Shown in pieces: positions 338-41,600 of a stretch of 64,000 bases of DNA. Position numbers and translations under genes: made by a program. This DNA comes from Kiritimatiellia bacterium (GTDB lineage: Bacteria; Verrucomicrobiota; Kiritimatiellia; RFP12; UBA1067), in the NCBI GenBank assembly GCA_017463935.1, contig JAFUEM010000028.1:751-64750 (forward strand), given 5' to 3'. The notes beneath the pieces were generated by a model. The model was not told where the DNA came from. It was given only the letters and a program-made list of their open reading frames with translations, and searched no databases. Within the stretch, counting starts at the first letter, position 1; the number at the start of each line of letters is the position of its first letter.

Positions 338-802
338 TTAAAATTCCACCTTGCGGCCGGTCTCGCGGCGGTAGCGTTCAAGCGTGGCTTCTCTGGACTG
401 GACGGCTTTCAGCCCTTCGCGCTTCGCCGTCTCGTAGTACCAGACCTTGAACGCGATGCGTTCCGCGCAGACGCGAAGCTCGTCCATCTGCTTCCGGACC
501 TCCGCCTCATGGCGGCGCATGAGTGCCAGACGCTGCCCGACCGACCGCTCGCCGCGTTTCGTCAGCTCCATGTAGCGGCGGATCTCGGCGAGAGGCAGCC
601 CGGTCTTCTTGAGGCAGGTGATGATGCTGATGCTGTAGTAGTCCTCGTCGGTATAGACGCGACGACCGCGTTCGCGCCTCACGGCCGGCAGAAGCCCCGC
701 CTTTTCGTAGAAGCGGAGCGTGTCGGCGGTGTACCCGGTCCGCTGGCAGATCTGCGAAATGGAGTAGCCCGCACCATCATTCTTCTGTGTCTTTGATTTC
801 AT
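338..802 (-). CDS. MerR family transcriptional regulator
   Basis: 154 aa; N-terminal HTH motif YSISQICQRTGYTADTLRFYEKAGLL typical of MerR. Confidence 0.85.
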   Translation of the reverse strand: MKSKTQKNDGAGYSISQICQRTGYTADTLRFYEKAGLLPAVRRERGRRVYTDEDYYSISIITCLKKTGLPLAEIRRYMELTKRGERSVGQRLALMRRHEAEVRKQMDELRVCAERIAFKVWYYETAKREGLKAVQSREATLERYRRETGRKVEF

Positions 803-810
803 GGTGCAAT

Positions 811-841
811 ATTATATCATCTGGAGTCAACTCCAAGTCAA
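811..841 (-). promoter_or_regulatory. MerR-type promoter: TTGACT, 19 bp spacer containing palindrome TGGAGTtgACTCCA, TATAAT; reads toward merR
   Basis: Minus strand reads gcTTGACTtggagttgactccagatgaTATAATattgcaccATG; the 19 bp spacer and dyad are hallmarks of MerR-family regulated promoters. Confidence 0.55.
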
Positions 842-1375
842 GCGGCGAAGTTCGCCCTTCTCAAGCCCGTTTTGGGTGTTTCACGGTAAGATTAAGAGCG
901 GATGTCTGTTGTGTTTATCAGTTGCTCTTGTTGTTTCCCGCCCCGTCGACAGATGCGACGAACGGGACACCCTCCCCCCAATTGCAATGCGCGCCATCGC
1001 CGCGCTCCTCGCGCAGCTTACAGACTCGTTTCAAAGTTCAATGGGGCCGAGGAAAAATCATGGGCATTGCTGCCCGCTACCTCACCTTCACGCGCAGGAA
1101 GAACGCGGACGGCGCGCCGTCGCCCAGATCTATTCGGTGATTTCGCCCATTCTACTATATGCCGTGCGAGCGAATGTAGGGAGTGTAGGCTATCGACAGT
1201 TCTAGCGGCAGAAAACCGCCGAGCCCACAACGAGCGCGGCGGATTCAGGTTTGCGCGTGTTCCGCAACTACGTGCGATTCGCCGCTATTTCGCGTCAAAT
1301 ACTAGCGGGATGCCGAACCAGTCCTTCATCCCCGCCCAGCTCTTCGCGTTCGCCGAGACATGGATAGCGGCAAAA

Positions 1376-2992
1376 CTAATCGATATAGCGTATGGGGCGG
1401 GATTCGTCCTGGTTCGTCGGCCAACGCTCGGGCAGCTCCCTGGAACCCGGTGACCTCCACCCCTTCGTGCCTTTGCGCACTTCGACGACAAGATCGGCAG
1501 GAGCACCAGTAAACACGACTTGTTTCCCCCACGAAAACTGTGCCAAACCTATCTGCGGTGCATCGCCATTGAACACGATCTTCTTCAGTTTGCCGCTACC
1601 ACAGGCAGCACATTGGCCTAAATATTGGAGGCTTTTCGGAAACTCGATCAACTCCAAATCCGGACACTCGCAAAGATTCCAAGGTTCCACATCCAGTATG
1701 CCCTCGGGGAGCTTTGCCGTTTTCAGTCCGCAACCGCGGAACGCACACCCCCCTATCTTTCTTGTCTTTGGAGAAAGCTTGACACTTTCGCGCGTTTTGG
1801 GGTAAGCGAGCAGCTTGGAAAAGTCTTTTGTATAAAGTGCCCCGTCACGGGAAGCAAAATTTTTATTCGATCTTGATATCTCGATGCTTGACAGCGATTT
1901 ACAATTGAAAAATGCTTCAGATTGTTCCAAACCTGCGGGAAGCACGACCTTGGTCATTTGTTCACAGCCACTCCAGAACGGGCTGTCATCATTATAACCA
2001 CGGCCTCCGGATATATTCGTAACCTTGTGCCCGTCAATTTTGTCCGGAATGACAAGAGTGCCGACAGGCTTCGGATCGATACCTGTGATGATAGCATTAC
2101 CACCTTCAAGTTTGTAGGAGAACTTGTATTCGACATTGGAAACATCTTTGGGATCAGTTGTTTTCGCAGATGGTGTCGCAATCACATCCTCCCCTGCCAC
2201 CTTCGCCTCTTCTATCCGGCGCTCGACCTGGACCTTGTTGAGTCCCTTGATATCATCCGAGGCGATGGCCTCTTCGTAGAGTTTCGCCGCGTGGGCGTGA
2301 AAACATCTCTCGATCTCGTCTGACTTGTCCTTGGCGTGGTTCATTGGATAGTCCCACCAGAAATCTGCAACCTTCTTGGTCGCACCTTTGCCGTCGCGCT
2401 CGGCCTTGGCAATCTCCCCGACCTTGCCGTCCGTTGCCGCGAAGTTCTCAAGCGCCCGATCCCAATCGCCGAGAAAGGCGTAGTGCTCGGCAATCTTCAG
2501 TCGAAGCGAGCGGTCGGCAGGGGTCTTCTTTACGGAACTCTCCAGCGTCTTCAGTTCGTCCGTGTAGCGCGAGCGGGCCTTTATCTCGCCCAGCATCCGG
2601 TAGAGCTGTCCGCCGTTCTTGCGCGGAACGGCGCGGAGCGAGGACTCTATGATCTTGGCCATGTCGGCGGGGGGCATGTCTGGGATGGCAGTCTGCAAGC
2701 CCTGGAGCGTCTCGATTGCCTTGTCGAACTCGCCCGCGCGGACGTAGAGGTTGAACGCGCCCTTCATCAGCAGGAGCTTCGCCGCCTCCGATTCCGCCTG
2801 GTCGGCAAGTTCCATTGCCGATTCGGCCACCTCGGCGCGCGTCTTCTTGCCGCTCTTGAGGGCGGCCTGATCGTCGCGCATGAGGTCCATGACCAATGGT
2901 TCGACCCTCTTGGTCTCTTCCTGAGTCGGCATGGCGTTCGCCGTAGCGGCGAAGGCCATCAGCCCGCTCAATATGATTTTCGTGCATTTCAT
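1376..2992 (-). CDS. secreted protein with TPR-like N-terminal region and BspA-type leucine-rich repeat C-terminal region
   Basis: ORF 1376..3073; likely start MKCTKIILSGLMAFAATANA (signal peptide); C-terminal segments such as FFNCKSLSSIEI resemble LRR_5/BspA repeats. Confidence 0.65.
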   Translation of the reverse strand: MKCTKIILSGLMAFAATANAMPTQEETKRVEPLVMDLMRDDQAALKSGKKTRAEVAESAMELADQAESEAAKLLLMKGAFNLYVRAGEFDKAIETLQGLQTAIPDMPPADMAKIIESSLRAVPRKNGGQLYRMLGEIKARSRYTDELKTLESSVKKTPADRSLRLKIAEHYAFLGDWDRALENFAATDGKVGEIAKAERDGKGATKKVADFWWDYPMNHAKDKSDEIERCFHAHAAKLYEEAIASDDIKGLNKVQVERRIEEAKVAGEDVIATPSAKTTDPKDVSNVEYKFSYKLEGGNAIITGIDPKPVGTLVIPDKIDGHKVTNISGGRGYNDDSPFWSGCEQMTKVVLPAGLEQSEAFFNCKSLSSIEISRSNKNFASRDGALYTKDFSKLLAYPKTRESVKLSPKTRKIGGCAFRGCGLKTAKLPEGILDVEPWNLCECPDLELIEFPKSLQYLGQCAACGSGKLKKIVFNGDAPQIGLAQFSWGKQVVFTGAPADLVVEVRKGTKGWRSPGSRELPERWPTNQDESRPIRYID

Positions 2993-3082
2993 TGTCTTTT
3001 TCTCCTCGTTTTCTTCGGCGGAACTCCCGCCGTCACATGTAGAATCGCATCGGCGCCAAACCTTTGACATCAAAAATCGAAA

Positions 3083-3682
3083 TTATTTTTCATCGGCGAA
3101 TTCCTCTTCAATGATCTCGGCCATCTGCTCTATGCGGGACTTGATCTTGTAGACCGCGGCCTTGGTTATGCCAAACTTCGCGGCCACATCGTCCAGCGGC
3201 ATTTCATCTTCGACGTATGCCCGATAGACGGCGCGTGATTGCGCGGATATCGCCGTTTTCGTAAGCACATGCTCGATGGCGCTTTGATGCCGCACCATCC
3301 GCCACTTGATGTCTATCTGCTCGGCGACATCCGCCGGGATGGAAGGTTCGACATCGTCAATATCGACATGCAGCCCCGCCCCACGCGCCTGGTCTTTCCG
3401 ATAGAGCGACACGAGATGCCGCCGGATCATCGTGGAAAGAAACGCCCTAAAACTGCCCTTGGACGCATCGTATCCGCCGGACTGCACGACATTCACGAGC
3501 TTGAGGAAGATATCCTGCACCACATCGTCGGGGTCGTGGGCGCTGTCATGATGGGCGACAAACCGCTTGATCGCCGGTTCGTACAGTCCGAAGAACCTGA
3601 CCCACGCCGCCTCGCGTTCGCCGGTCACCCGCACGGCAATCTTCCTCAGCAGCGTCATCGAGGTTTCGGGGAACGCGCTCAC
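3083..3682 (-). CDS. RNA polymerase ECF-type sigma-70 family sigma factor
   Basis: 199 aa; sigma-70 region 2 (DVVQDIFLKL) and region 4 HTH (LDDVAAKFGITKAAVYKIKSR); 4 bp overlap with upstream kinase gene. Confidence 0.85.
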   Translation of the reverse strand: MSAFPETSMTLLRKIAVRVTGEREAAWVRFFGLYEPAIKRFVAHHDSAHDPDDVVQDIFLKLVNVVQSGGYDASKGSFRAFLSTMIRRHLVSLYRKDQARGAGLHVDIDDVEPSIPADVAEQIDIKWRMVRHQSAIEHVLTKTAISAQSRAVYRAYVEDEMPLDDVAAKFGITKAAVYKIKSRIEQMAEIIEEEFADEK

Positions 3683-4737
3683 TTGCCGCCCTCCCTATGC
3701 TGGAGCACATCATCCGCCGAGAACAGTTCTCTGAAATCGTCCTGTTCGGGCGGCGGCGGTTCATTGCTCTTGGAACGGGACGCGGCAATGGCGACTACAG
3801 CAGCGGCAATAACTGCAACAGCGGCGACCGCAATGAACCACCAACGCTTTATGAACGCAAAGCGAGTGGCTGGCGTTTTCATCTGCGTGGATACATCGTC
3901 CTCTGTCGATTCTACCGGCTGCAACTGGCGCGGCAGATCCGAGAGCGGCAACGGGCGTTCCTGTGGATCGACGGAGAGCATCCGAGACAAGACATCGCGC
4001 CACTGGTACTTGAATCCGTCAAGCAGCGCCAGCGCCTTTGTCCCAGGTTCATACCAAAGACCCGTAAGGAGGTGAAAGAACATCACTCCGAGCGAATAGA
4101 CATCTGCTGCCGGCGTCGCGTCATGGCCTGCCAGGACATCCGGGGCCATATAGCCATCTGTGCCCATGATGAGCTTGGATTCCGTCTTGCCATCCGAGAC
4201 AATAGTCCGCGTCACATTGACTTCACGCGAAAGCCCCTCTCCGAAGATGCGCGATACGCCGAAGTCGGAAAGCATCACATGCTTGTCCTCGCGCAGAAGG
4301 ACGTTGCCGAGCTTGATGTCGCGGTGGACGATGCCCTGCGCGTGGATGTAGTCAAGCGCCTTGCACAGATCGTCAAACCAGTCGAAGATGTAGTCCTCTT
4401 CGAGATCGTCCAATTCAATGTCATCCAGCGTATGCGGCGTGCCGTCCTCGTAGGTGATCATGTCCATGACGAAGTACGGAACGCCTGTCGCCTCGTCAAC
4501 GGCCAAGTCGAACACGCGGATGAGATGCGGATTGCGCAACCGCGCCAGCACCTTCCCCTCGGCCAGGAACTTCTTCTTAAGGACATCGACATACCCGCTC
4601 TGCGCCGTGAATGCCTTGAGCGCGTAGTGCACGCCGAGCTGCTCGTGCTCTACTTCGTAGACAGCCCCCATGCCACCCTCTCCAAGAAGGCGGATTACTC
4701 GGTATGCGCCGATTTTATGTCCAGAAGCAAATGTCAT
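3679..4737 (-). CDS. serine/threonine protein kinase with C-terminal transmembrane anchor
   Basis: 352 aa; GEGGMGAVY glycine loop, VAIK-like ALK, HRDIKLGNVLL catalytic loop, DFG motif, hydrophobic WWFIAVAAVAVIAAAVVAIAA segment. Confidence 0.85.
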   Translation of the reverse strand: MTFASGHKIGAYRVIRLLGEGGMGAVYEVEHEQLGVHYALKAFTAQSGYVDVLKKKFLAEGKVLARLRNPHLIRVFDLAVDEATGVPYFVMDMITYEDGTPHTLDDIELDDLEEDYIFDWFDDLCKALDYIHAQGIVHRDIKLGNVLLREDKHVMLSDFGVSRIFGEGLSREVNVTRTIVSDGKTESKLIMGTDGYMAPDVLAGHDATPAADVYSLGVMFFHLLTGLWYEPGTKALALLDGFKYQWRDVLSRMLSVDPQERPLPLSDLPRQLQPVESTEDDVSTQMKTPATRFAFIKRWWFIAVAAVAVIAAAVVAIAASRSKSNEPPPPEQDDFRELFSADDVLQHREGGK

Positions 4738-4771
4738 TCTTTCTATACGTGTCGCCGCTCGGCAATCGAAC

Positions 4772-5053
4772 GAAAAAAAGAAAACCTCCCTTCCTGTTCT
4801 ACTAGAGGCTGTGAGAATTGCCTTGATGGAAACACGAAGAGAGGCAAGCGCGTCTGCGCTTCCTCTGCAAGGTGCCGTCCATCTTGAAACTTCTCACATT
4901 CCTAGTAACGACCGCTTTGCAGCGCAAATTGTCTTGTCGCGCCATAGCCCGTAAGGGCGTAGGCGGATTATGCGGCGGGTCGTTGCCTGCCTATATTCCG
5001 TTTACTGTGGTGTTGCCATTCCTTTCATTTTCAGTTTCACGGCTTGAGATTGA
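4772..5053 (-). ncRNA. conserved ~300 nt leader-like element (copy A) ending in an intrinsic terminator just upstream of the kinase gene
   Basis: About 75-80% identical to 40424..40706 over ~280 nt (e.g. cgacCgctttgcagcgcaaatt, ttcctttcattTtcagtttcacgGcttgagattg); minus-strand hairpin CCUCUCUUC/GGAAGGGAGG followed by UUUUCUUUUUUU at 4773..4850. Confidence 0.4.
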
Positions 5054-5449
5054 TTACAGAAAATCCGCCATGTTCGAAGGCGGCTGCGTTGGCTCTGGCG
5101 GCAGTGTTGCGGCGACTGCCTTCACTTTTTCACATTCGACCGGAATGTCGTTTTGCAGAATATCCCAAATAGTGTCGTAATCTATGTCAGCGTAATCATG
5201 CACAATCTTATGCCTGACACCAGCGAGGCCCTTCCAATCCACTTCAGGATTCTGGGCTGCAAACTCACGGGTGATGTTGTTGGCGGCCTCGCCCAGTACC
5301 ATCAAATTAAAGAGGATCATCTCAGTTGTGTTTTCATGCCGCCGCAACTGGTCGCGCTCCAAGCCCCTGCTCAGCTCTGCTATCCGTTCCATCGCATCCA
5401 GCATGTGCCGAACACGCGAATCATCACGATAAAGCGAAGGATTCGTCAT
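5054..5449 (-). CDS. hepT: HepT-like nucleotidyltransferase substrate-binding toxin (DUF86)
   Basis: ORF 5054..5470; DUF86-like sequence RVRHMLDAMERIAEL...NLMVLGEAANNI...HKIVHDYADID; abuts upstream mntA-like gene. Confidence 0.7.
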   Translation of the reverse strand: MTNPSLYRDDSRVRHMLDAMERIAELSRGLERDQLRRHENTTEMILFNLMVLGEAANNITREFAAQNPEVDWKGLAGVRHKIVHDYADIDYDTIWDILQNDIPVECEKVKAVAATLPPEPTQPPSNMADFL

Positions 5450-5739
5450 ACCGGCACGGCCTCCTTGCAAACACGATGCGCAAAGCCAAGAGACTGCGGC
5501 AGAATCCGAGATGCCACAAGGTCAACTCTGCTGCCAAGCAGTTTTTCATATGCGGATGACATTGCACGTTCATTACGCCAACTATACTCGCCCGGCATCC
5601 ATTTGACAAGAAAATCCACGTCGCTGTCGGGGCGCTCCTCCCTGCGGGCGCACGAGCCGAAGACCCAAAGCTTCTCGGCCTTGTGCCTCCTCGCGATCGC
5701 GTAGATTTCATCCCGCTTCGCGCGTATCTCGTCTAACAT
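5446..5739 (-). CDS. mntA: MntA-like minimal nucleotidyltransferase antitoxin
   Basis: ORF 5446..5751; GSxARxxxxxxSDxD motif (VFGSCARREERPDSDVDFLV). Confidence 0.7.
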   Translation of the reverse strand: MLDEIRAKRDEIYAIARRHKAEKLWVFGSCARREERPDSDVDFLVKWMPGEYSWRNERAMSSAYEKLLGSRVDLVASRILPQSLGFAHRVCKEAVPV

Positions 5740-5764
5740 GCACATTTGCAAGCGCGGATATTAT

Positions 5765-5840
5765 GCCCCAAGAGAAAACAAAGGCATTTTAGCAAAAATC
5801 ATCCTTCCCGTCAATCTGGGGAACGGCGAAAATCGCAGTG
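5765..5840 (-). promoter_or_regulatory. sigma-70 promoter (TTGACG-17-TAAAAT) plus conserved 5'UTR block shared with 41528..41600
   Basis: Minus strand: agaTTGACGggaaggatgatttttgcTAAAATgcctttgttttctcttggggcataatatcc; roughly 80% identical to the region upstream of the GNAT/RHH TA module. Confidence 0.55.
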
Positions 5841-5903
5841 TCGAAGCTGAAAATGGTTGGTTGCGCAGTATGGCCGCGTCCTCAAACCTCAAGGCAGCTG
5901 GCG

Positions 5904-22878: not shown

Positions 22879-23423
22879 CCGAGAAAGGCAAACTGGCGTT
22901 GCGCAAGCCGCTCGTGCCGGCAAAGCAAAAGCAGAGAAGCGTCAAGAAAAACAATCGCAAGGATTGCAAAAGCAAGCTGTCTCGGACTGTCATATACGGC
23001 ATAACCGATCCCGGCAAGGATGGGCCGGCTATCATGCGGACTATAGCCGACGAGTTGCCGCGCATCCATGATGCCACCGGCGGCAGGATAGACAAGGTCG
23101 TAATTGATTGCCATTATTCCACTCAGGCATCTCTCTCCTCGCCGTTTGAAGTGGATTACGAAAAGACAACAAGTCTGCAAACTGATTTGAAGATAGGCGA
23201 ATTCACAATCCGCACCAACTATCGTAACAGTAAATATGCCGATGAAAATTCTCGCGACATCAAGGCGATATTTGAGGAGTTGAGGCGGCTCCACCATCAA
23301 CTTGGCGACCAGATAAGCGAGATAGATGATGACCCTGAAGACGCCAGCAGCGCATTGGAGGACATCCACGCCGAAATGGAAACGCAATTGGATGCTCTTG
23401 AAGAGGCGCTTGAAGAAGAGTAA
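22875..23423 (+). CDS. hypothetical protein with basic N-terminus and acidic C-terminus
   Basis: Translationally coupled (ATGA overlap) to the preceding gene; 182 aa. Confidence 0.5.
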   Translation: MTEKGKLALRKPLVPAKQKQRSVKKNNRKDCKSKLSRTVIYGITDPGKDGPAIMRTIADELPRIHDATGGRIDKVVIDCHYSTQASLSSPFEVDYEKTTSLQTDLKIGEFTIRTNYRNSKYADENSRDIKAIFEELRRLHHQLGDQISEIDDDPEDASSALEDIHAEMETQLDALEEALEEE

Positions 23424-23538
23424 GCGATGAAACGAAGTTCTCCAAGGCAGGCTCGAAAAAGCGTACCGCAACGGACATATTCCATTGTTGGTGTCTTTAC
23501 TATTAGATTACTCAAGGACATTTATTGGGAATAGTTTC

Positions 23539-24618
23539 ATGGCCTTGACAATTGGTTCATTCAATCTTTGCAATTTCAGTTCAAACGAGGACCGCAAGTT
23601 CCCCAAGGACTATAGTGCGATTGCGAATGCAATTTTAATGTCAGGCGCAGATGTAATTGCGCTTCAAGAGGTTATAGATCAGCAAGCGATAAATAGTTTA
23701 CTGAATCAACTTCGCGGACTTGGAGGCGCGAATCGAGACTGGCGGGGCTTCTTTGATAAGAAGGCGACGTGGCGCAACAATCGTGAGGGATATGCATTTG
23801 TGTGGGACGAAAAATGCGTGACTTTTGCAAAGGACGATGATGGTAATGAGGTGTTGCCCGAATTAGTAACAAAGTTTACCTCAATAAAGCGTCCACCGAT
23901 GGTTGCAAGGTTTGTTACTACGGGATCGGGTGAATTGCACTATGAACTCTGTGTAATAAACACACATATCGTTTTCAAACCAGATGGTTATCAGGCGCGA
24001 CACCCGGAGTGGTATGGAGGTGCTGCGATAAGAGCATTCGAATATTCGAAGATCGTTAACAGTGTTTATCCGCGTTTCAGCAATAAGCACTGTACATACA
24101 CGATTATTGCTGGCGACTATAACTTGAAAAGTTCTATGCTTGCTGTAGTTAATGCTCGTCCTAAGCTATCTAAAGGGCAGCCTACTATGATGTCCGTGCA
24201 AAGCGATAAGACAACAATCAAAACAACAGATTCAATGATTGATGATACATGTGAATCTCAGGGAAGTAAGCCAGATGACATAGGTCTCTTCGCTGCAATT
24301 TATAATGGCGTTATGCGGCTATTCAAGAATGGCGAGTCGATAGGTCGGCCTCCGTCTCAGTTGGCGGATAAACAAGCGCAAACAGAGAATGCAGAAACGC
24401 AGCAACCAACTGCGGATGGCACATATGTTAGTGATTATGATCACTTCAGTTTTGAAGTTGGTCGGGTTGGCGACTATGTGAGAAATGCACATCGCGTTAA
24501 CGCCCCTGAGCTTCTTTATCCAACGCCGAGTCGTATGTTTCATTCCTATAAAGAAGGAGTATCGGATCATGTGCCGATAGCGGCAACACTTGATTTGTCT
24601 GCATCACAGTCATTGTAA
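23539..24618 (+). CDS. endonuclease/exonuclease/phosphatase (EEP, DNase I-like) family protein
   Basis: IALQEV, IIAGDYN and SDHVPI motifs characteristic of the EEP fold; low-GC gene. Confidence 0.7.
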   Translation: MALTIGSFNLCNFSSNEDRKFPKDYSAIANAILMSGADVIALQEVIDQQAINSLLNQLRGLGGANRDWRGFFDKKATWRNNREGYAFVWDEKCVTFAKDDDGNEVLPELVTKFTSIKRPPMVARFVTTGSGELHYELCVINTHIVFKPDGYQARHPEWYGGAAIRAFEYSKIVNSVYPRFSNKHCTYTIIAGDYNLKSSMLAVVNARPKLSKGQPTMMSVQSDKTTIKTTDSMIDDTCESQGSKPDDIGLFAAIYNGVMRLFKNGESIGRPPSQLADKQAQTENAETQQPTADGTYVSDYDHFSFEVGRVGDYVRNAHRVNAPELLYPTPSRMFHSYKEGVSDHVPIAATLDLSASQSL

Positions 24619-24628
24619 GGAGAATAAC

Positions 24629-27469
24629 ATGAACAACATCATTTCCCAGCTATTTTCAAGGAGCGACAGGTCTCGTTCCATAACCAAAATCGACGCATCG
24701 CTCAAGCGAAGCGATGCTAACAAACTCCGAGCGGCAACTGCGCTTAACATGTGCATGGCGTCCGTGTCCGAGATTATCGCCAAGAACAACCTTGTTGCGA
24801 TGGAACATGAATATAATACGATTCTCAATAATCTCAATATGGAGTCTATCATCAAGGATGAGGCTTTGCTTAAGGTTATGAGGAAGTTACTTGACACGAT
24901 TTCGTTCTTCCGCTTGAATGACATGGAGCGCAAGCGCCTTGAAGAGCGTCATGAGCGGAAGATGAGCGGATCCGTTCTGGATAAACTTCTCTCCGGGGGC
25001 ACATCACTCATCGTATGTGTCGGCAATCCAATCGCTCTAGCAACGACTGCTGCTGTAGTTGGAGCAAGTATGTATGCAAACAAGAGGAAGGAGGATGCGA
25101 AAGAGCGGGAGAAGTTTGAGGATAAAATGTGGGAGTTGGAACGTTCGGCAATAGAGCAGCTTCATGCGCTACGTGTCGAGCTATTTGAATGTGCCTGGCG
25201 ACTTTCGGATGCCTACGAATTCAAAGATGAATGGCGGCTTACGGAAAAACAGATTGATTGGTACAATGAGGCAAAGAGCGAATACGATCCATTTCTTCGC
25301 TTTGCAAAACTCAATCAGCGTCGCGAGGATTTTTCGATTTACCCGCAGTATTGGTACGAGCTAGGTTCTGCCGCGCTTGAAATCACACAGTTGCCTGTAA
25401 AGGATGTCGATTGTGAAGATGAAATCAAGAAGGCAAGACATGAAGAGATAATCAAATCCTATCTTGATGAAGCGAAATCATGTTTTGGCAAGTATATCGA
25501 CTGTGACCCGCATCTTCTTCGTCAGGACTTTTTCTCTGCGGATGCGCGTATAAAGTATATTAGCATTGTTAAAGAAGAAACCGGTGGGTGGGCTTCCGCA
25601 CTGTTGGCGGAGGGTGATAAGTTGATGAGCGTTCGCCGTCTTGCATTGGATAATTCCGAATTGTTGCTTAAAGTGGCGATGATCTATGCTGCAGCGTTTA
25701 TTGAGTTAAAAGCAAAGGCCGAGAAAGCTCCTGTCGATGGAAGTGCAGCACTCTCCGATACCGAGAGCGACGTTGTCGCCGACTGGTATAAACAGGCGGT
25801 GGCATGTCTTGAAGTTCTTGTAATGCGCGAGTCAATGCTGCCAGTTAGTTCTGTACTCCTGAGCGCTTTACAGAAGATTAATGATGATAAGGTTGCGTAT
25901 GAGCATATCTGTCGCATAAAAGACAGTGCTCGCAATAATAAGATTATTCTCGTTGACTATGATTCTGAACATAATATCGCAGAGACAGTAAAGAAGACGA
26001 TTGAGGAATATGGTAAGAAATCAGTTGCGTCTATTAAGACGCTTTTCGCTCGGTCTTACGGAATGATTCTTCAGCTTGCAGAACCTGCATTTAATGTGTC
26101 GGAGGATGAGCAACGCAAGGTGCTTCAGAAGTGGGCTTCGGACACCAAGGATTTTCATGTGGGAATGTTGCAGTTGTGGGAGTTGCTTAAAGGCGAATTT
26201 AATACCTTCTTCATCTTTGTCGGAAGAGAGTACGAGAAATGTCCGGCTGCTGACAAACAACTTGAGGAGATAGCTAAAAAGCTTAATGATACTTTCACTA
26301 AGGAAATGGATGTCGATAAGCCTGGGAGACCTGATGAAAAGGCGTCTGCCGTTGTGCGTGTTACGGATCATATCCGCAGAGAGTTTATATCCAAAATGAA
26401 TGATTTTGTCGAGACTTTTAACGGTGATGGTGATGATAAAGTTCCAGCCGAGGAGTTTCGAGGATCGTTGTCGTTCTACATTGATTCTGTGTGTTCTCGT
26501 AAAAGTATCATTAACATAAATAAGGATAGTCGGTCTTATGACGCTTGTCGTCTTGACTATTTTAGAGGAATCGAACCGCAGAGTCTCGAAGAAGACGAAA
26601 CAGACCAGTGGGAGCCATCGCTCTTTGGTGCGGATAGGGAATATACACAAGACGGTTTGGTTTTTGAGTTTACAAAGATTGATCACGCAGAATACATCGA
26701 ACGTCTCATTGATAAGAGATTGTCATATAGAGTTACGTTTAAAGAAGCTTCGTCTCCGTCTGAGTTGCGCAGACTCGTTGAGGAGTGTATGAATCTTCTT
26801 ATATTCAAATATCAAGGCTACAATGCCAGCGTTCGAGATTTGCGGTCTAAAAGGGATTGCGGCGGATTTTGGAAGAAAACAGGCAATTTCTTCGCGAAGT
26901 GTGGCAAAAAGATATACAATATTACAAATAACCGGGATTATATCATTGAGATTTATGATGATCGGATTGATGTGGCATATCAGCGAGTGAACGATAATGA
27001 GTCTGTTATGCCGATTGCGCTTCTTTCGCATCAAGCGCTCGAGCGCGAAGTGAAACGACTGCTTAATTCTTCGATAGGGAAAGGGTCTCCTGAGTATAAT
27101 CGCCTTTGTGAGGCATTCGTTCGAACGATTGACGAAGAATTCACGGAGATGGTCTCTGAATTTGAGACCATTAAGGCCAAGCTTAACGATAAGCAAGTCG
27201 CGAAGCAAAGAGCAAAGATTATGAAGCGTTTTGTGAAAGCCATTGGTGCGTTCTGTAAGAAGGCTAATGGCAGACACCTTTGGGCCGCTAAAGAGCTGAT
27301 GTGTAATCTCCTCGGTGATGTTCATTCGGGGCAACTCAAGCTTGATATCGTGTCTCGGAACGTTATCGATGATAGTAGTCTTACCGCAGCGCAATTAGAA
27401 TTTAAGGACAGATCCGAGATTGGAGAATCTTGTACGAATCCAGTGCCTAAAGATACAGAGACCCTGTGA
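24629..27469 (+). CDS. large (946 aa) hypothetical protein, one predicted hydrophobic segment near residue 130, low-GC composition
   Basis: AAGGAG SD 7 nt before ATG 24629; uninterrupted 2.8 kb ORF in the AT-rich island; no recognisable domain. Confidence 0.7.
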   Translation: MNNIISQLFSRSDRSRSITKIDASLKRSDANKLRAATALNMCMASVSEIIAKNNLVAMEHEYNTILNNLNMESIIKDEALLKVMRKLLDTISFFRLNDMERKRLEERHERKMSGSVLDKLLSGGTSLIVCVGNPIALATTAAVVGASMYANKRKEDAKEREKFEDKMWELERSAIEQLHALRVELFECAWRLSDAYEFKDEWRLTEKQIDWYNEAKSEYDPFLRFAKLNQRREDFSIYPQYWYELGSAALEITQLPVKDVDCEDEIKKARHEEIIKSYLDEAKSCFGKYIDCDPHLLRQDFFSADARIKYISIVKEETGGWASALLAEGDKLMSVRRLALDNSELLLKVAMIYAAAFIELKAKAEKAPVDGSAALSDTESDVVADWYKQAVACLEVLVMRESMLPVSSVLLSALQKINDDKVAYEHICRIKDSARNNKIILVDYDSEHNIAETVKKTIEEYGKKSVASIKTLFARSYGMILQLAEPAFNVSEDEQRKVLQKWASDTKDFHVGMLQLWELLKGEFNTFFIFVGREYEKCPAADKQLEEIAKKLNDTFTKEMDVDKPGRPDEKASAVVRVTDHIRREFISKMNDFVETFNGDGDDKVPAEEFRGSLSFYIDSVCSRKSIININKDSRSYDACRLDYFRGIEPQSLEEDETDQWEPSLFGADREYTQDGLVFEFTKIDHAEYIERLIDKRLSYRVTFKEASSPSELRRLVEECMNLLIFKYQGYNASVRDLRSKRDCGGFWKKTGNFFAKCGKKIYNITNNRDYIIEIYDDRIDVAYQRVNDNESVMPIALLSHQALEREVKRLLNSSIGKGSPEYNRLCEAFVRTIDEEFTEMVSEFETIKAKLNDKQVAKQRAKIMKRFVKAIGAFCKKANGRHLWAAKELMCNLLGDVHSGQLKLDIVSRNVIDDSSLTAAQLEFKDRSEIGESCTNPVPKDTETL

Positions 27470-35745: not shown

Positions 35746-36166
35746 TCTGGCAACAAGCACTTCTCGCTCTTCTCATGGTGAGAGGAGCGGAACGTCACAC
35801 CAACCACAACAGGAGAAATCCACAATGAACGGAAAGATCAACACACCTCGCACCGTGTGCAAGGCCATCGTCGCCGTGGCAATCGCGACAATTAATCACA
35901 GTCGCGGCCATCATCGACTGCTCGTCTCTCGACGGAGGCTCGCGCAAGGCGAACATCGCCACGATCATCCAGACCGCCTACGACATGGTATCCCCGAGCG
36001 AGATTCGCCTGTCGCCGTAGGCGATCAGGTGGGCCGAATGAGCGTAGCGAATGAGCCGCAAAGCGGTCGCAAGGCCCCGCGCGAGGTGCTTTCGCATAGC
36101 GAAAGTCACAAGAGCCCGCGGAAGTGCGCCGATTGCAAGGCCCGCGAGTAGAAGCGTTCCCGCAAA

Positions 36167-36212
36167 GGCGGTCACGTCGTTCTTCGGAGCGGCGTGACCG
36201 CTTTTTTCGTTT
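36167..36212 (+). terminator. strong rho-independent terminator (GGCGGTCACG...CGTGACCGC TTTTTTCGTTTTC)
   Basis: 9-10 bp GC-rich stem with T-run; only on plus strand; no convincing protein gene upstream. Confidence 0.55.
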
Positions 36213-36286
36213 TCGGGACGTTGCGGGGGCGCGAATCAAGCCCCTATCTCACCGTCCGATAATATGCCGTAATACGGCAACCGAAG

Positions 36287-37210
36287 TCAATTTGACTTGG
36301 GTGACATGGAATCGGAGAATTCAAAATGTCTAGTCTTTATCCCCTTTGAATCAGTATATTCATGTAAGCCAAGGTAGAGTTCGCCAATAATGTCGCCTGT
36401 GTGTATGGATGTAATCACAATGCAATTGTGATTGGGTTCAAAGTGGTAGCGCAACCCATTGAACGCGTCGCAACCATGCCTAAAATGGCAACAACATTCA
36501 ATCGTTCCTCCTCGGAAGCGGAGGAACCAGTTCTCCATCAATGCGTCGCTAGCCCCACATCCATCATTTCCAGCGACATCTGAACTTGCGAACAGGAAGA
36601 CACACCCCTCATGTACCCAAATCTGGCTCTTGCGGAGTTTCAGTTCCATCTGACATGCATATTCGCTATTTGTAAAGAAAGCTATGCCGTTCGTAAAACA
36701 TATTTCCTGCTTTTCAAAGTGCCCTATGCCAGACGAGACCGACTTCCAGGCATACATTACTTGCTTCAATTCGTCGCGGGAGTATTTCAGATCCGTCACG
36801 CAGACATCATAATCCTTCATCAATTTTCGCTCGTAATCGTTCTGCGCCGTCGAATAGAACCAATTCGTCACGATGGATTTCCATCGGCTCTGAAAGTCTC
36901 TCTCGGCGTTACAAAGCATAGCGTATGAGATGCGACCTCCGCCCATCATCTTGTGCGAGGAGTCAAAATCCGCTTTCTCAACTTGATATGCCGCATACAG
37001 AGCATTCCGCTCAATCTCAATCGTATAATCAGTCTTCGCTGTCCTTGCAAACTCATTCGTCACCGAATTTACGGCACATAATTTCTCGTCAATCATGTGT
37101 ACCGCATTTTCCATGCGTGAAAGCATGACAGCAAGTCGTCTATTGTGAATTAGGCTTATTCCCAAGGCACACGCAATCGTAGCGAATATGATGCTGTTTG
37201 CCTTTTTCAT
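36287..37210 (-). CDS. hypothetical signal-anchored protein (307 aa), low-GC island
   Basis: N-terminal hydrophobic segment MKKANSIIFATIACALGISLI; Cys-rich C-terminal region. Confidence 0.5.
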   Translation of the reverse strand: MKKANSIIFATIACALGISLIHNRRLAVMLSRMENAVHMIDEKLCAVNSVTNEFARTAKTDYTIEIERNALYAAYQVEKADFDSSHKMMGGGRISYAMLCNAERDFQSRWKSIVTNWFYSTAQNDYERKLMKDYDVCVTDLKYSRDELKQVMYAWKSVSSGIGHFEKQEICFTNGIAFFTNSEYACQMELKLRKSQIWVHEGCVFLFASSDVAGNDGCGASDALMENWFLRFRGGTIECCCHFRHGCDAFNGLRYHFEPNHNCIVITSIHTGDIIGELYLGLHEYTDSKGIKTRHFEFSDSMSPKSN

Positions 37211-37285
37211 GTTTGTTTCAATCTTCTATAACTCATTTGGTGTCTCAGTCAGAAGTCCCAATGCCCTTTGCGAATCATGACCATG

Positions 37286-37975
37286 TCATGCCATAATAAT
37301 GGCCATGCACATCATCGCAGATATACCTATTAGCAATGGAATTAGACAACCTGTACTTGTTGGCGAGCCGACTTGCCGCTTGTTGCCGCTTTGCGGCGTT
37401 TCGCGTATCACAGCAGCAGTTGACGAGTAACCGAATCTTTCCGCAAACTCTTCAGCGGTCATGCCAGCAGATTTAGCACGCTTATCCGCACCCGATTCAA
37501 TCAACTCCCGCGCAACATCATCATGCCCTTTGAATGCGGCGTTGGCTAGAGCAGTCGAACCGTCCCCAGCACGCTTTTCCGTGTCTGCGCCTGCCTTCAA
37601 TAGTGCCTTTAGGATGCGTAGATATCCACGTTGTGCTGCCATACAGAGAGCAGTAAGTCCCGGTTCAATGGCTAACTTGTCGTTCGGGTTCGCACCGTGC
37701 GAAAGTAAATATTCGACAACTTCGTCTCGTCGTTGCTCAATAGCGACAAGCAATGCCGTGCCGCCCTCGAAACTCTTTGCACCGACATCGGCTCCTCGTT
37801 CAACAAGGAGTTTAACAGTATCGATATTACCGCCTCCAGCTGCTGTCATAAGGGCGGTTTCGCGGCTGCCCTCATTACGGACATTGACATCAATGCCTGA
37901 ATCAAGCATCACGCGCACTTCAGCGGCAGTACCATATGCGGCGGCATTAAGAAAATCAAAAGTTGAACAAGCCAT
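37286..37975 (-). CDS. ankyrin-repeat protein with C-terminal transmembrane anchor
   Basis: Repeated TALMTAAGGGNIDTVKLLVERGADV... ANK units; C-terminal LIPLLIGISAMMCMAIIMA. Confidence 0.8.
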   Translation of the reverse strand: MACSTFDFLNAAAYGTAAEVRVMLDSGIDVNVRNEGSRETALMTAAGGGNIDTVKLLVERGADVGAKSFEGGTALLVAIEQRRDEVVEYLLSHGANPNDKLAIEPGLTALCMAAQRGYLRILKALLKAGADTEKRAGDGSTALANAAFKGHDDVARELIESGADKRAKSAGMTAEEFAERFGYSSTAAVIRETPQSGNKRQVGSPTSTGCLIPLLIGISAMMCMAIIMA

Positions 37976-37994
37976 CTAGAAATCTCCTTTGGAG

Positions 37995-38369
37995 TTATTT
38001 GCAGTCGGGGTATGACAGTAAAATGTGCAACTTCATTTGCTGGTCTATGATACTTGTCGGCGATGGCATCGGCGCAATCGCGATCAAAGCCGCCCCTATA
38101 ATGACGAACGGAAGTGCCAGCAAAAATGCCACAGGACGCAATAGCCAATACGAACGCGCAACGGCTCCGCATCCCATTATTACACCAAGGCACACCAACC
38201 AAGACAGCGAAAACAGAAGTAGCACGAGCATTAGCGGCACTATTAGAATCTGACATGGAATATAGATTATGCGCAGCAACATACCAACAGGAGACAGTAT
38301 GAATTTGATTGCCGCCGTAATCAGTCCAAATACAACCGTATCATATCCTTTGTGCATGGTGAATTTCAA
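37995..38369 (-). CDS. hypothetical polytopic membrane protein
   Basis: 124 aa, three or four hydrophobic helices. Confidence 0.45.
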   Translation of the reverse strand: MKFTMHKGYDTVVFGLITAAIKFILSPVGMLLRIIYIPCQILIVPLMLVLLLFSLSWLVCLGVIMGCGAVARSYWLLRPVAFLLALPFVIIGAALIAIAPMPSPTSIIDQQMKLHILLSYPDCK

Positions 38370-38372
38370 ACT

Positions 38373-38600
38373 TCAAGAGATGTCACAATAACGTTCTGTA
38401 TGGATCATTGCCCAGATTGCGCCAGGCACCCATCCTATGCAAGTCAAGATAAGGCAGATTACAAACTGTATCGCCGCCACCCCCTTTGCATCTGACTCGG
38501 AAGCAAAAGGATTTGTGAGTAGAATTCCCTTGTATGCCACATATGCAGCCATCACCGGTGGCATGAGGCAAACCAGCAAGTCCATAAATATTCTACGCAT
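38373..38600 (-). CDS. Pmp3/YqaE (UPF0057) family small membrane protein
   Basis: 75 aa, two TM; ...ILTCIGWVPGAIWAMI resembles the Pmp3 signature. Confidence 0.55.
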   Translation of the reverse strand: MRRIFMDLLVCLMPPVMAAYVAYKGILLTNPFASESDAKGVAAIQFVICLILTCIGWVPGAIWAMIHTERYCDIS

Positions 38601-38608
38601 CTGCCCCC

Positions 38609-38806
38609 CTATTCTTTGACAATCATCTTATAAATCTTTACAGCACCAACTATTACCGCAATAGTCCATATGCCAAATGCCCATTGTTGCCCAACACTTG
38701 AATAGGTTGCATCGCCGCCAAAAATCAAACCGCGACCAACAGCAACCCAAACCACAAATGCGATAATCCCAATCAGCCACTTTATTGCCGCATGTTCGCG
38801 TGACAT
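38609..38806 (-). CDS. small membrane protein (65 aa)
   Basis: Two hydrophobic helices; tightly packed with neighbours. Confidence 0.4.
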   Translation of the reverse strand: MSREHAAIKWLIGIIAFVVWVAVGRGLIFGGDATYSSVGQQWAFGIWTIAVIVGAVKIYKMIVKE

Positions 38807-38807
38807 G

Positions 38808-39557: not shown

Positions 39558-39601
39558 GTCGGGATCTCCATTATGGTTACTTGATAGAGTTGTTCACTTA
39601 G

Positions 39602-39799
39602 TTACCAATGTTTTTCATAACGAACTTTACCATCAGGCATTTCAACGGGCGTGTATCTCCCCCGACGTACATCTTCATCAAATTGTTTAGCCTGGTCATA
39701 CAGATTGCGCCGTTGGCTGTGCATTAAGAATTTGAACAGCGCAACCAATACTACTATAACTATTATGCCTATGGCTATCAGTTTTTGCGTTCGATTCAT
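39602..39799 (-). CDS. small single-pass membrane protein
   Basis: MNRTQKLIAIGIIVIVVLVALFKF... Confidence 0.4.
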   Translation of the reverse strand: MNRTQKLIAIGIIVIVVLVALFKFLMHSQRRNLYDQAKQFDEDVRRGRYTPVEMPDGKVRYEKHW

Positions 39800-40314
39800 T
39801 TTGTCGCCTCATCCTGCTTGTTGTTAATGTATATCTCTCTGTATGCAAATTCATCCGAGCTGGTGTTCCAGTTCAGCTCTCCTATAGCCGATGTGTTTTC
39901 TTTCTCGTAAACGCGGAATGATTCTTTTGTTCTAAACAAATCGCCCTCAACATGCACCAATTCATTCCTGACATTAAATGTAGGGCACCCACCGTCTCCA
40001 AAATCAAACCATTCGAATATCCAAGCCTTATATTCGTAGCCTGACGTTACTGAGAATATGACACCTCTGCGTAGGTGACGCCCACCTTGTTCCTTGTAAA
40101 TCTGATATAGAACCATGCCAGGCCCAGTGAGTCTAAATGTTCGTGCTGGTGACGGGATCTTACACCCACCCCAATTATCGTATACTGAACAAAGCCGCAG
40201 ACACTCTTCACGACCAATAGGGTCTTTCATGTTTGAGGTTGTATTTGTAAGTCCGACACGCTTAGCGGTCGGCTTATCACAATCTGAACCAAACAACCAG
40301 GTTAACAATCCCAT
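39796..40314 (-). CDS. hypothetical protein, first gene after leader copy B
   Basis: ORF 39796..40350; preferred start MGLLTWLFG with GGAGGA SD (alternative GTG at 40350). Confidence 0.5.
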   Translation of the reverse strand: MGLLTWLFGSDCDKPTAKRVGLTNTTSNMKDPIGREECLRLCSVYDNWGGCKIPSPARTFRLTGPGMVLYQIYKEQGGRHLRRGVIFSVTSGYEYKAWIFEWFDFGDGGCPTFNVRNELVHVEGDLFRTKESFRVYEKENTSAIGELNWNTSSDEFAYREIYINNKQDEATK

Positions 40315-40423
40315 ACTGCAATCCTCCAACATGCCCTTGTTGAGTTTCACTTCGCAAGGATCGGGCTTGTCCTCGTTCCGCGTCGCTTTGCTGTTCGGCG
40401 GTCAGATACGAATCGAGGGCATG

Positions 40424-40706
40424 AAAAAGCCTCGCTTCGTGTCTCGAGCGAGGTCGTAGAGATTACCCTGAATGAAACACGAAGCGAGGCGAACGCATTA
40501 TGCGTCCCTCTGCCAAGTGTCGTCATTCGTGAAATTCTCTACGTTTCGCTCGACGACTGCTTTGCAGCGCAAATTACTGTCATATCCACTGGTCGCAAAC
40601 CGCCGTGAAGCGGTCGCTAGAGTGGGGTGCGGATTTCTCCCGCCTTATCGTTTTAACTGTCTATGGGCATGTTCCTTTCATTGTCAGTTTCCACGATTTG
40701 AGATTG
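40424..40706 (-). ncRNA. conserved ~300 nt leader-like element (copy B) with intrinsic terminator
   Basis: Homologous to 4772..5053; minus-strand hairpin CCUCGCUCGagacaCGAAGCGAGG + CUUUUU at 40424..40453, with alternative longer pairing to upstream GCCUCGCUUCGUGU. Confidence 0.4.
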
Positions 40707-41303
40707 TTACGCAACAAGGGCGTTGCTCAATACGCAGAGCATTTGATCGTAATCAACGCCGTCTTTGCCATCGTGCCTTTCGTTCCACGATTGAAAATTC
40801 CATCGGGTGTAGAAGTTCACCAATTCGGGTGACTTCATGTCGCGTTCCACAAGAACAAGTTTGCCGCCGACAATTTCCCTCGCTGCATATAGTTTCTCGA
40901 ACGCGAGCCTTAGAAGCTCGTCGCCGCTGATGCGTTCGCCGTCCTCGATGGCAAAGTTCTTTCCGATCTGCGCAATCAGATAAACGGCTGCCGTATAGCG
41001 TTCCCCGTCCACGTCGGCAAAACGTTCGATCAAACGGCATTTGGTCTTTGACAACTTCTCCTTCCCTATGGAAAACGGTTTCAAGACCAATGTGAAATAA
41101 CCCAACAAGAGAGATGTGGTGTTGTCGTAAACCAGATACGTCATCGACGCGCCAAGATGTAGCGAATGGACAGCCTTCTTTTGCAGGAAATCTTGAACCT
41201 CCGCGTTCAAGGGACACGAGAAATCTTCAAACGAATATCCCTCAGCCAAACCGCCGGCAGATTCAAACTGCCGCAGAGATATTACTGCCACATCACGCTT
41301 CAT
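40707..41303 (-). CDS. GNAT-family acetyltransferase toxin (TacT/AtaT-like)
   Basis: 198 aa GNAT fold; 4 nt overlap with upstream small RHH-type gene; classic antitoxin-toxin order. Confidence 0.6.
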   Translation of the reverse strand: MKRDVAVISLRQFESAGGLAEGYSFEDFSCPLNAEVQDFLQKKAVHSLHLGASMTYLVYDNTTSLLLGYFTLVLKPFSIGKEKLSKTKCRLIERFADVDGERYTAAVYLIAQIGKNFAIEDGERISGDELLRLAFEKLYAAREIVGGKLVLVERDMKSPELVNFYTRWNFQSWNERHDGKDGVDYDQMLCVLSNALVA

Positions 41304-41509
41304 GCGCCAACCCTGCTACGACGGGCGCGAACAACACGCTTGACGAAATTCGCAACCTCTCGTTTGTTGCGAAACTCGTGAGCCGTTCCCGTAGGCACAG
41401 GAGCCACCCATTTCGCGGGCGGTTTTTCCGACAACAGCAAATCCACAAAGGTGTTTGCCGCCTTTGCGTTATCGCAGTAGAAGTTCGCCGTTATGCTTGA
41501 TGTTGCCAT
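41300..41509 (-). CDS. small antitoxin (RHH/DUF1778-like) partner of GNAT toxin
   Basis: ORF 41300..41602; start MATSSITANF... with GAGGTGA SD; 69 aa. Confidence 0.5.
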   Translation of the reverse strand: MATSSITANFYCDNAKAANTFVDLLLSEKPPAKWVAPVPTGTAHEFRNKREVANFVKRVVRARRSRVGA

Positions 41510-41527
41510 GTTGTCACCTCGCTTTCC

Positions 41528-41600
41528 GTTCAAGGGCATAATACCCCCAAAGAAAAACAAGTGTAGTTTAGCAAAAATCGCGGCAAGAGTCAATTGGGGC
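41528..41600 (-). promoter_or_regulatory. sigma-70 promoter (TTGACT-17-TAAACT) plus conserved 5'UTR, homologous to 5765..5840
   Basis: Minus strand: aaTTGACTcttgccgcgatttttgcTAAACTacacttgtttttctttgggggtattatgccc. Confidence 0.55.

Follow-up and report, generated by a model that had tools for sequence, protein, structure and literature searches.

A multi-copy structured RNA of gut and rumen Kiritimatiellia, a candidate leader of accessory genes that carries toxin–antitoxin modules as cargo

Leader RNAs that choose between a terminator and an antiterminator – the pbuE adenine ON switch and T-box leaders, for example – occupy the 5′ leader of a same-strand gene, keep both helices through compensatory changes and let the 3′ strand of a structured domain double as the 5′ arm of a helix that ends in a U-tract. 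These features recur in an RNA element that we describe here from a 64,000-nt stretch of a Kiritimatiellia bacterium (contig JAFUEM010000028.1, assembly GCA_017463935.1; hereafter the window), where it occurs at ~5 kb (copy A) and ~40 kb (copy B), both times downstream of a toxin–antitoxin (TA) or TA-like module. It differs from those leaders in having no Rfam match, in folding as a long, near-continuous rod instead of a junction-type aptamer, in a rod that is much more stable than the putative terminator, and in preceding genes without a common function.

Other described systems resemble parts of the element. Leaders with c-di-GMP-I (GEMM) riboswitches likewise precede genes of mixed function (signalling, surface, accessory), with several to many diverged copies in a genome, but Rfam scans detect no similarity in sequence or structure, and our element differs further in carrying TA cargo in its 5′ part. 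The chromosomal integrons of Vibrio contain tandem, co-oriented TA modules with own promoters, a conserved repeat (attC) right after each stop codon, and occupied as well as empty versions of the site, all of which have parallels in the TA arrays described below. Those arrays differ in that no integrase or attI was seen at the ones examined, no R″/R′ cores of the attC type are visible, a structured RNA gene supplies the repeat with its 5′ part, the point of truncation is not constant, and the array always ends in a full RNA followed by a downstream gene. Finally, the element resembles REP/BIME, ERIC, BOX and Correia repeats in being dispersed, multi-copy, structured, intergenic, co-transcribable and apparently able to mediate recombination. 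It is, however, much longer than these repeats, has a predicted promoter and terminator of its own, keeps a fixed orientation to the downstream gene, and combines helix covariation with invariant loops.

Copies A and B are paralogous members of a previously undescribed, multi-copy structured RNA of gut and rumen Kiritimatiellia. The TA modules are not part of this RNA: modules of unrelated families are exchangeable cargo lodged between its promoter and its body. We rate as new both the family of structured candidate leaders and its unreported habit of collecting TA modules inside an RNA gene; a search of the literature on Kiritimatiellia non-coding RNAs or TA systems found nothing relevant to such an element.

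Two homologous blocks and an RNA family

A sequence-only reading of the window had proposed that two unrelated TA modules share a framework, with homologous promoter/5′ untranslated region (5′UTR) blocks upstream and homologous blocks downstream (4772-5053 and 40424-40706). Both homologies hold on the minus strand, which is the coding strand of all genes around the two sites. The downstream blocks (4740-5060 vs 40390-40715) align with 77% mean column identity, and blastn pairs one stretch of 116 nt at 76% identity (E 7e-14) and another of 40 nt at 87.5% (E 1e-5); the upstream blocks (5735-5900 vs 41505-41670) align with 75% mean column identity around a blastn core of 43 nt (79%, E 0.005). A promoter scan of the minus strand recovered the promoters that had been read there, TTGAC(G/T)-17-TAAA(A/C)T. 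Consistent with the proposal that the downstream blocks start right at the toxin stop, both begin 2-3 nt past the stop of the preceding gene (HepT, 5054-5056; a 198-aa gene, 40707-40709). The block coordinates also stand, except that copy B does not end at its U-tract: conservation runs ~90 nt further, through a second domain (D2, 40331-40419). Searches with blastn, nhmmer and sub-models of the RNA found no third or partial copy in the window, where the two copies lie 35 kb apart.

To count copies in relatives, as the sequence-only reading had suggested, we assembled two sets. In the genome set, one genome per species was searched for exact matches to the most conserved 21-mer; 43 of the 46 matches were full homologs, and the remaining 3 equal the number expected by chance. 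Nearly all of these homologs lie in gut or rumen metagenome-assembled genomes (MAGs) labelled Kiritimatiellia, Verrucomicrobia or Lentisphaerae, or in unlabelled rumen MAGs, and a single MAG can have RNA copies on up to 4 contigs. For the metagenome set the search pattern was anchored in a different part of the element, to avoid circularity, and 120/120 returned stretches were homologous. Together the searches recovered >160 copies (43 genome + 120 metagenome). Because the exact 21-mer occurs in only 49/111 metagenome alignment rows (44%), the genome-set counts are underestimates. Within the metagenome set, the hairpin GCUGC-AAA-GC and the following GUCG are conserved at 92-100% per position and the preceding AAUUUGC at 76-92%.

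Rfam 15 returned 0 matches at the gathering threshold in the whole window, and permissive scans of both copies stayed at chance level (E 4-9), in agreement with the first impression that the element belongs to no known RNA family. What is added is a large, well supported structured RNA family (>160 copies, ~20 covarying pairs) without an Rfam counterpart, from a lineage of the gut and rumen that has been little studied and is largely uncultured.

Some loci stand out in the collection. Two typical copies with Kiritimatiellia-like neighbours come from a MAG labelled Clostridia (locus L039) and one labelled Actinomycetaceae (L052); these contigs are probably mis-binned. Several contigs carry more than one copy within a few kb, among them L126 and L166 (two copies ~8 kb apart), and L040 has a weak second match ~3.4 kb downstream of its full copy.

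Anatomy and competing folds

From 5′ to 3′ the RNA consists of E5, P1, an invariant motif, a long irregular hairpin, a tail, a U-rich tract and the optional D2, amounting to ~250 nt up to the putative terminator and ~340 nt with D2. E5 (~57 nt, AAUCUCAAAUCGUGAAACUGAAAUGAAAGGAAC...) and P1, a GC hairpin of two types, make up a variable 5′ module, with E5 present in 82/142 unique copies. The invariant motif has the consensus CAAUUUGCGCUGCAAAGCRGUCGUC and contains an invariant hairpin, GCUGC-AAA-GCRGU. The long hairpin is built from P2, P3, a UUUC/GGcAA element, P4 and P5; after it come the tail ACACGAAGAGAGG and the U-rich tract, which is conserved across the alignments. D2 (~90 nt) is found in about half of the copies (48 bear it) and ends at the ribosome-binding site of the next gene.

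Copies that lack E5 and P1 have other 5′ parts directly behind an extended -10 promoter (TGGTATAAT or TGATATAAT). In TA-less copies TGnTATAAT lies ~57 nt upstream of the motif, and this promoter is often preceded by a terminator-like hairpin. The presence of an own promoter in copies without a TA module indicates that the RNA is a transcription unit in its own right, and the TA-linked form in the window is one variant of it. A promoter model derived from the TA-less copies misses the upstream blocks of the window, so these are two distinct promoter types. In the TA-less copies L019, L023, L032, L042, L043, L045 and L053, we observed, at ~20-40 nt upstream of the -10 box, a GC hairpin and behind it a T-run that passes directly into the extended -10 (e.g., CCGCCCGCTCTGGCGGATTTTTGGTATAAT), an arrangement that resembles a terminator or insulator fused to a promoter.

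In the structure prediction on aligned copies, another check that had been proposed, RNAalifold applied to the 43 genome copies folds the long hairpin into a rod with strong covariation. In the genome set (n=43) 97.5% of 1697 alignment cells are paired, and 20 base pairs show double-sided changes (286 such cells); the metagenome set (n=73) gives 98.2% of 3053 cells and 19 such pairs (500 cells). In neither set did any of 500 shuffles reach the observed pairing percentage or covariation score, and controls in which the strands were slid against each other paired at 38-51% (genome set) and 35-53% (metagenome set). The cells include 220 G·U vs 19 A·C, and pairing is 97.5% on the minus strand vs 85.7% if the opposite strand is read; this excess of G·U over A·C places the RNA on the minus strand. 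Single-sequence folding fails to choose between the strands (z -3.4 minus, -5.0 plus).

These data bear on whether the blocks are functional at all. A duplicated fragment of a protein-coding gene, which the sequence-only reading had named as a way in which its idea could fail, or a passive MITE- or REP-like repeat would be repeated and intergenic, as the element is, and might fold equally well on both strands in single-sequence folding. We rejected the coding reading: the open reading frames (ORFs) within copies A and B are unrelated, differing in frame, length and sequence, and indels that are not multiples of three break the frame. As for a passive repeat, 19-20 base pairs carry compensatory changes with a strand-specific G·U bias, orientation relative to the downstream gene is fixed, and no terminal inverted repeats or target duplications were seen. 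Helix covariation together with invariant loops argues for selection on one RNA fold rather than for a palindromic DNA repeat. A non-functional origin thus appears already contradicted by the covariation and orientation data, and we regard it as hardly credible.

We identified a second conserved helix, P6, in which CCUCUCUUCGUGU pairs with the tail over 13 bp and the U-tract follows directly. P6 is paired in 93.7% (genome set) and 98.6% (metagenome set) of cells vs 45-72% in slid controls. Its 5′ arm consists of the same bases that the rod uses for the 3′ strands of P5-outer and P4-inner (shared columns 214-226 of alignment A6), and one column covaries with both its rod partner and its P6 partner, reading as the triplet C-G-C in 22 copies and U-A-U in 8. 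As only 1 nt separates the 3′ end of the rod from the 3′ arm of P6, a pseudoknot of the two long helices is implausible and alternative folds are indicated. The alignments show rod and P6, as predicted structures, to be mutually exclusive and both kept by compensatory substitutions, the pattern of a terminator/antiterminator pair maintained in evolution. The intrinsic terminator of the sequence-only reading survives in part: a helix that ends in a U-tract is present, though as a 13-bp long-range helix with a loop of ~35 nt and not as a short local hairpin.

Other candidate structures were rejected. A closing helix proposed by RNAalifold (E5 GAAAG with the U-tract) shows only one-sided changes, and its 4-bp pairing of motif UUGC with GCRR after the terminator is too weak. 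Tiny ORFs in E5 (AUGAAAGGA...) and in D2 after the U-tract (AUGCCCUCG...) might have encoded leader peptides, but their AUG is lost in several copies.

The arms of the D2 hairpin (CCCUCGAUUCGUGU / ACACGGAACGAGG) closely resemble the P6 arms, both in the window (40331-40419) and in 47 other copies. P6 and D2 arms together line up as four segments with several possible pairing registers, as in a classical attenuator, and because of this resemblance the 3:4 and 4:5 pairings of the D2 fold are indistinguishable.

A candidate leader of accessory genes

Consistent with a role as a leader, the longest ORF downstream of the RNA is on the same strand in 123/136 unique copies, while upstream ORFs split 58 to 43. 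In copy A the ATG of a kinase gene (4737) lies 35 nt past the U-tract with no promoter-like site between them in the promoter scan; between the TA promoter and the kinase, the sole promoter-like site is inside mntA. In copy B, D2 reaches up to the GGAGGA-N8-ATG of the first gene of a low-GC operon. With no intervening promoter, the downstream genes depend, as far as can be read from the DNA, on transcription through the RNA, which thus sits in the 5′UTR of a co-oriented gene.

Together with the competing helices, these results suggest that the element is most likely a transcription-attenuating leader. P6 and the U-tract would form an intrinsic terminator and the rod its antiterminator, so that the RNA, as the 5′ leader of the following accessory gene or operon, would gate read-through. 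With a rod that dominates thermodynamically and emerges first during transcription, read-through is probably the default state, and the regulated step would then be the prevention or opening of the rod apex by some factor. Protein, small RNA and ligand are all candidates for the effector that chooses the fold, and it could engage either the conserved loops or the strand GACGRCAC..GCAGAGG. TA modules would be co-transcribed with the RNA body, and in the window their presumably autoregulated promoters would be the only visible transcript source for the leader, for the kinase/ECF-sigma operon (copy A) and for the operon of the AT-rich island (copy B). We thus infer that the switch regulates read-through and that TA autoregulation feeds the downstream operons. 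The explanation as a whole – a structured leader RNA with a rod/terminator switch before accessory operons and TA modules as its cargo – strikes us as reasonably probable. The cis-regulatory RNA proposed in the sequence-only reading is supported by the covariation, the U-tract-ended helix and the same-strand downstream genes; actual regulation is what we conjecture from them. A rod that competes with a terminator before promoterless accessory operons is a concrete, testable switch and a candidate target for a new RNA-binding regulator or ligand.

Several points weigh against this explanation. Promoter, terminator and read-through are all predictions from sequence. The minimum free energy (MFE) fold is the rod and not P6 in every copy folded, leaving unclear when the terminator would form; the P6 loop of ~35 nt is unusual for an efficient intrinsic terminator, and a simple terminator scan omits P6. 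A pairing of the motif with the 5′ strand of P4/P5, which would act as an anti-antiterminator, was rejected: the strands are complementary, but they show no covariation and include 13 A·C cells. Copy B contains a weak promoter-like match (40526..40497, minus strand, ATGACG-18-CATAAT, 9/12), so that transcription might start internally. RNA cores that are identical in unrelated flanks (below) imply recombination or mobility of the RNA block, which the model does not fully explain. The downstream genes have no common function, which speaks against a metabolite riboswitch of the classical kind and offers no hint of the signal, and a copy that has a promoter of its own and a long U-tract could just as well be a stand-alone small RNA. 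As to the promoter-like match in copy B, it uses the conserved GACGRCAC and a P5 loop, CAUAAU, that occurs in a subset of copies; it is absent from copy A.

The lack of a common downstream function is pronounced: 38 downstream proteins fall into 36 Pfam families, none found in more than 2 of them, and include kinase, BspA-type LRR, Sel1, PrsW and zinc-ribbon proteins, GH16 and lectins. The shared pathway or transport function expected downstream of a metabolite riboswitch is not seen. Second-messenger riboswitches are known to head heterogeneous genes in many copies, and the rod might similarly be the aptamer for a global signal (e.g., a second messenger) that stabilises it and blocks P6, as an ON switch. 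Invariant loop nucleotides (GAAA, UUUC, GCAGAGG, AAGGCAAU, GCCUC) between freely covarying helices do look aptamer-like, and the putative terminator overlaps the 3′ side of the structured domain. However, the nearly continuous rod of 40 bp needs no ligand to be far more stable than P6, it offers no multi-helix junction or pocket-like architecture, and no functional theme downstream points to a ligand; we therefore consider a ligand-binding riboswitch very improbable.

A stand-alone, trans-acting small RNA (sRNA), extending from promoter to U-tract and pairing with targets through the motif or the 3′ tail, would make the downstream genes mere neighbours and the TA modules users of a strong promoter. 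The many copies with an extended -10 ~57 nt before the motif and an end at the U-tract fit such a gene, as do several diverged paralogues per genome, an invariant 24-nt motif that could act as a seed, and near-identical cores in unrelated flanks, as expected of a self-contained gene. Against it, co-orientation with the next gene is 90% vs a roughly random upstream orientation, only 35-60 nt and no promoter separate the U-tract from the next start codon, conservation continues through D2 to the ribosome-binding site in about half of the copies, and the invariant motif is itself mostly base-paired in a hairpin. We consider an sRNA unlikely, and retain the attenuating leader as the preferred reading.

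Toxin–antitoxin modules as cargo

Across the collection, the ORFs that end at E5 encode HepT (10), PIN (7), Rpn-family PDDEXK_2 nucleases (3), ORF6N, DUF2442 and many small unassigned proteins, and the gap from stop codon to E5 is most often 2-5 nt. The promoter and 5′UTR block of the window (-35, -10 and 5′UTR CTTTGTTTTCT-TTGGGGYATWAT) recurs before modules in L017, L018, L024, L035 and L052, and in L021 and L013 the frame is empty, with the promoter directly before E5.

Pairs of loci reveal how the slot is filled. L011 (empty) and L037 (occupied) have the upstream Rpn gene, a 100% identical RNA core and the downstream gene in common; L037 also contains a promoter and a two-gene TA-like (PIN-type) insert, flanked on either side by a copy of E5-P1-motif. 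In L037 the left one of these two copies is cut after the 5′ strand of P2, exactly where the -10 box of the insert begins. The pair L123/L088 repeats this picture: the two are 99.8% identical from just upstream of P1 onward and unrelated before that point, where L088 has a TA pair followed by E5, with a partial P1-motif copy 1 kb upstream. Several other pairs of loci have the RNA and downstream gene in common and differ upstream. Five TA modules stand in tandem in L117 (reverse complement, 697-4342): one consists of a PIN gene, another of a PIN-type pair, two contain a 'KKVYVET' protein, and one is MntA/HepT. E5 comes after each of them, alone or together with P1, motif and promoter; the array ends in a complete RNA and then an 836-aa gene.

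Each insertion would thus leave behind the inserted genes a copy of the RNA 5′ module (E5 alone, or E5 together with P1 and motif), and because it does so, repeated insertion would build tandem TA arrays. The dispersed RNA copies probably supply the homology or recombination site by which TA modules move between loci. RNA cores with 97-100% identity turn up between unrelated flanks, and the block that they share extends from motif to U-tract; examples are window 4777-4903 vs L038, and the pairs L040/L044, L022/L048 and L031/L050. The core of copy A is 99.4% identical to that of L038, whereas copies A and B, in the same window, differ by ~25%. These identical cores point to gene conversion or mobility of the core itself, and recombination among dispersed copies is, judging from such comparisons, evidently frequent.

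An integron-like, site-specific cassette system, with E5-P1-motif as an attC-like site for a recombinase encoded elsewhere and RNA-like conservation as a secondary matter, would account for same-orientation tandem TA cassettes separated by a conserved repeat abutting each stop, for the empty/occupied pair with its duplicated module, for the palindrome TTTGC-GCT-GCAAA in the motif, for the break of homology between otherwise unrelated loci at motif and U-tract, and for Rpn-family recombination-promoting nucleases among the cargo. However, no integrase adjoins the arrays examined: the flanks are an ABC permease (L117), a patatin (copy A) and a dehydrogenase-like ORF (copy B), although no systematic whole-genome search was made. 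No paired attC cores (RYYYAAC / GTTRRRY around an imperfect inverted repeat of 55-140 bp; the R″/R′ type) are visible in the E5-P1 consensus or the L117 spacers as read by eye from the alignments, without an attC model. The truncation point of the left copy varies (after P1, or after motif and P2 5′ strand), which fits homologous recombination better, and most of the conservation is at the RNA level, with G·U-tolerant covariation. With no integrase seen, no attC-type cores and varying cut points, we favour homologous recombination via the 5′ module, a mechanism that we infer, and consider a site-specific system quite improbable. Separately, the Rpn-family proteins in the TA slot at three loci, L011 and L037 included, bear the family name 'recombination-promoting nuclease / putative transposase' (PDDEXK_2, TIGR01784).

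The sequence-only reading had offered a cassette-exchange site or a cis-regulatory RNA. For the exchange site, unrelated TA families in one slot, the empty/occupied pair and the five-module array are observed, with function as our interpretation; the evidence supports the view that the two proposals are both true rather than alternatives, each holding in part. A rule of genome organisation emerges, in which unrelated TA modules are repeatedly inserted at one place in an RNA gene and its 5′ module is duplicated. Integron-like TA arrays without a visible integrase also bear on how TA systems spread and cluster beside variable islands. A tentative, rather speculative extension is that the RNA is the common leader of a lineage-specific regulon of horizontally acquired accessory operons, with one effector flipping the rod/terminator switch, and its 5′ module an integrase-independent docking site through which TA modules move between dispersed copies and accumulate in arrays; TA autoregulation and the RNA switch would then gate the downstream islands together. 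Such a combination of common leader and docking site would be a new kind of RNA-gene-based cassette platform.

Low-GC islands occur in the window at 23000-27000 and 36000-40400 (GC 0.41-0.50 vs ~0.58 elsewhere). The second begins immediately downstream of copy B and contains a run of small minus-strand proteins without a family match, which suggests that the leader there sits before horizontally acquired DNA. The features of both copies are collected in Table 1.

Table 1. Positions in the window of the two RNA copies, their promoters, cargo genes and following genes
Feature	Position	Strand	Basis and remarks
Copy A upstream block	5758..5840	-	Promoter and conserved 5′UTR stretch (CTTTGTTTTCTCTTGGGGCATAAT); alignment, blastn, promoter scan
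Copy A promoter	5814..5786	-	Sigma-70-type; -35 TTGACG, spacer 17, -10 TAAAAT, TG-extended
MntA-type nucleotidyltransferase antitoxin	5446..5739	-	Copy A cargo; Pfam Polbeta 1.8e-10, NTP_transf_2
HepT (HEPN) RNase toxin	5054..5449	-	Copy A cargo; Pfam HepT-like 1.2e-21
Copy A 5′ module E5 (AAUCUCAAGCCGUGAAACUGAAAAUGAAAGGAAU...)	4994..5050	-	nhmmer sub-model; stands behind each inserted gene
Copy A invariant motif CAAUUUGCGCUGCAAAGCGGUCGU	4908..4931	-	Contains hairpin GCUGC-AAA-GCGGU, 4911-4923
Copy A rod, helices P2-P5	4799..4908	-	~40 bp with conserved internal loops; RNAalifold, covariation, MFE fold
Copy A P6 5′ arm CCUCUCUUCGUGU	4832..4844	-	Bases shared with P5-outer and P4-inner of the rod (3′ strands)
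Copy A P6 3′ arm and U-tract UUUUCUUUUUUU	4773..4797	-	Putative terminator; arm 4785-4797, U-tract 4773-4784
Ser/Thr protein kinase gene	3679..4737	-	Pfam Pkinase 1.4e-39; first of kinase / ECF-sigma / LRR_5 cluster
Copy B upstream block	41528..41600	-	Promoter and conserved 5′UTR
Copy B promoter	41593..41565	-	-35 TTGACT, spacer 17, -10 TAAACT, TG-extended
69-aa putative antitoxin (N-terminus MATSS...)	41300..41509	-	First gene of copy B module
198-aa putative acetyltransferase toxin	40707..41303	-	Copy B cargo; PHROG 1758
Copy B RNA	40422..40705	-	nhmmer E 1.7e-85, sub-models, alignments
Copy B E5	40646-40704	-	Sub-model
Copy B P1 and motif	40552-40645	-	Sub-model; motif 40553-40573
Copy B rod, P6 and U-tract	40422-40548	-	Sub-model
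Copy B second domain D2 (CCCUCGAUUCGUAUC ... GACGCGGAACGAGG ... GCCC...GGGC)	40331..40419	-	nhmmer D2 sub-model, 76 bits
First gene of AT-rich downstream operon	39796..40314	-	GGAGGA 8 nt before ATG at 40314; no Pfam match; GC profile

The cargo of copy A had been read as a type II HepT/MntA module. The family names are right – the HepT-like and Polbeta/NTP_transf_2 matches exceed the Pfam cut-offs – and the type is not: NCBIfam names the pair type VII. Its matches to HepT_toxin (7.6e-9) and MntA_antitoxin (2e-9) are both below the equivalog cut-offs. The adjacent MNT and HEPN genes overlap, stop over start, at 5446-5449, as type VII modules do.

For copy B a GNAT/RHH module had been proposed. 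The acetyltransferase half is less certain than HepT/MntA and is kept as putative: the 198-aa protein matches PHROG 1758 ('acetyltransferase', 2.2e-32) and, weakly, PDB entries of which the five best (E 0.2-1.2) are without exception GNAT/N-acetyltransferase chains, while Pfam and NCBIfam give no match to it (E<=1 / 0.1). The RHH label finds no support: the 69-aa protein has no Pfam or NCBIfam match, ribbon-helix-helix (DUF1778-type) or other, and only a PHROG of unknown function (E 0.086). The 69-aa and 198-aa genes thus form a TA-like module without a Pfam or NCBIfam entry, whose larger protein is known only by a phage-protein family. Homologues of the N-terminus of the 69-aa protein stand behind the same promoter block in L052, L018 and L035, and homologous 69-aa/198-aa pairs do so in L052 and L024.

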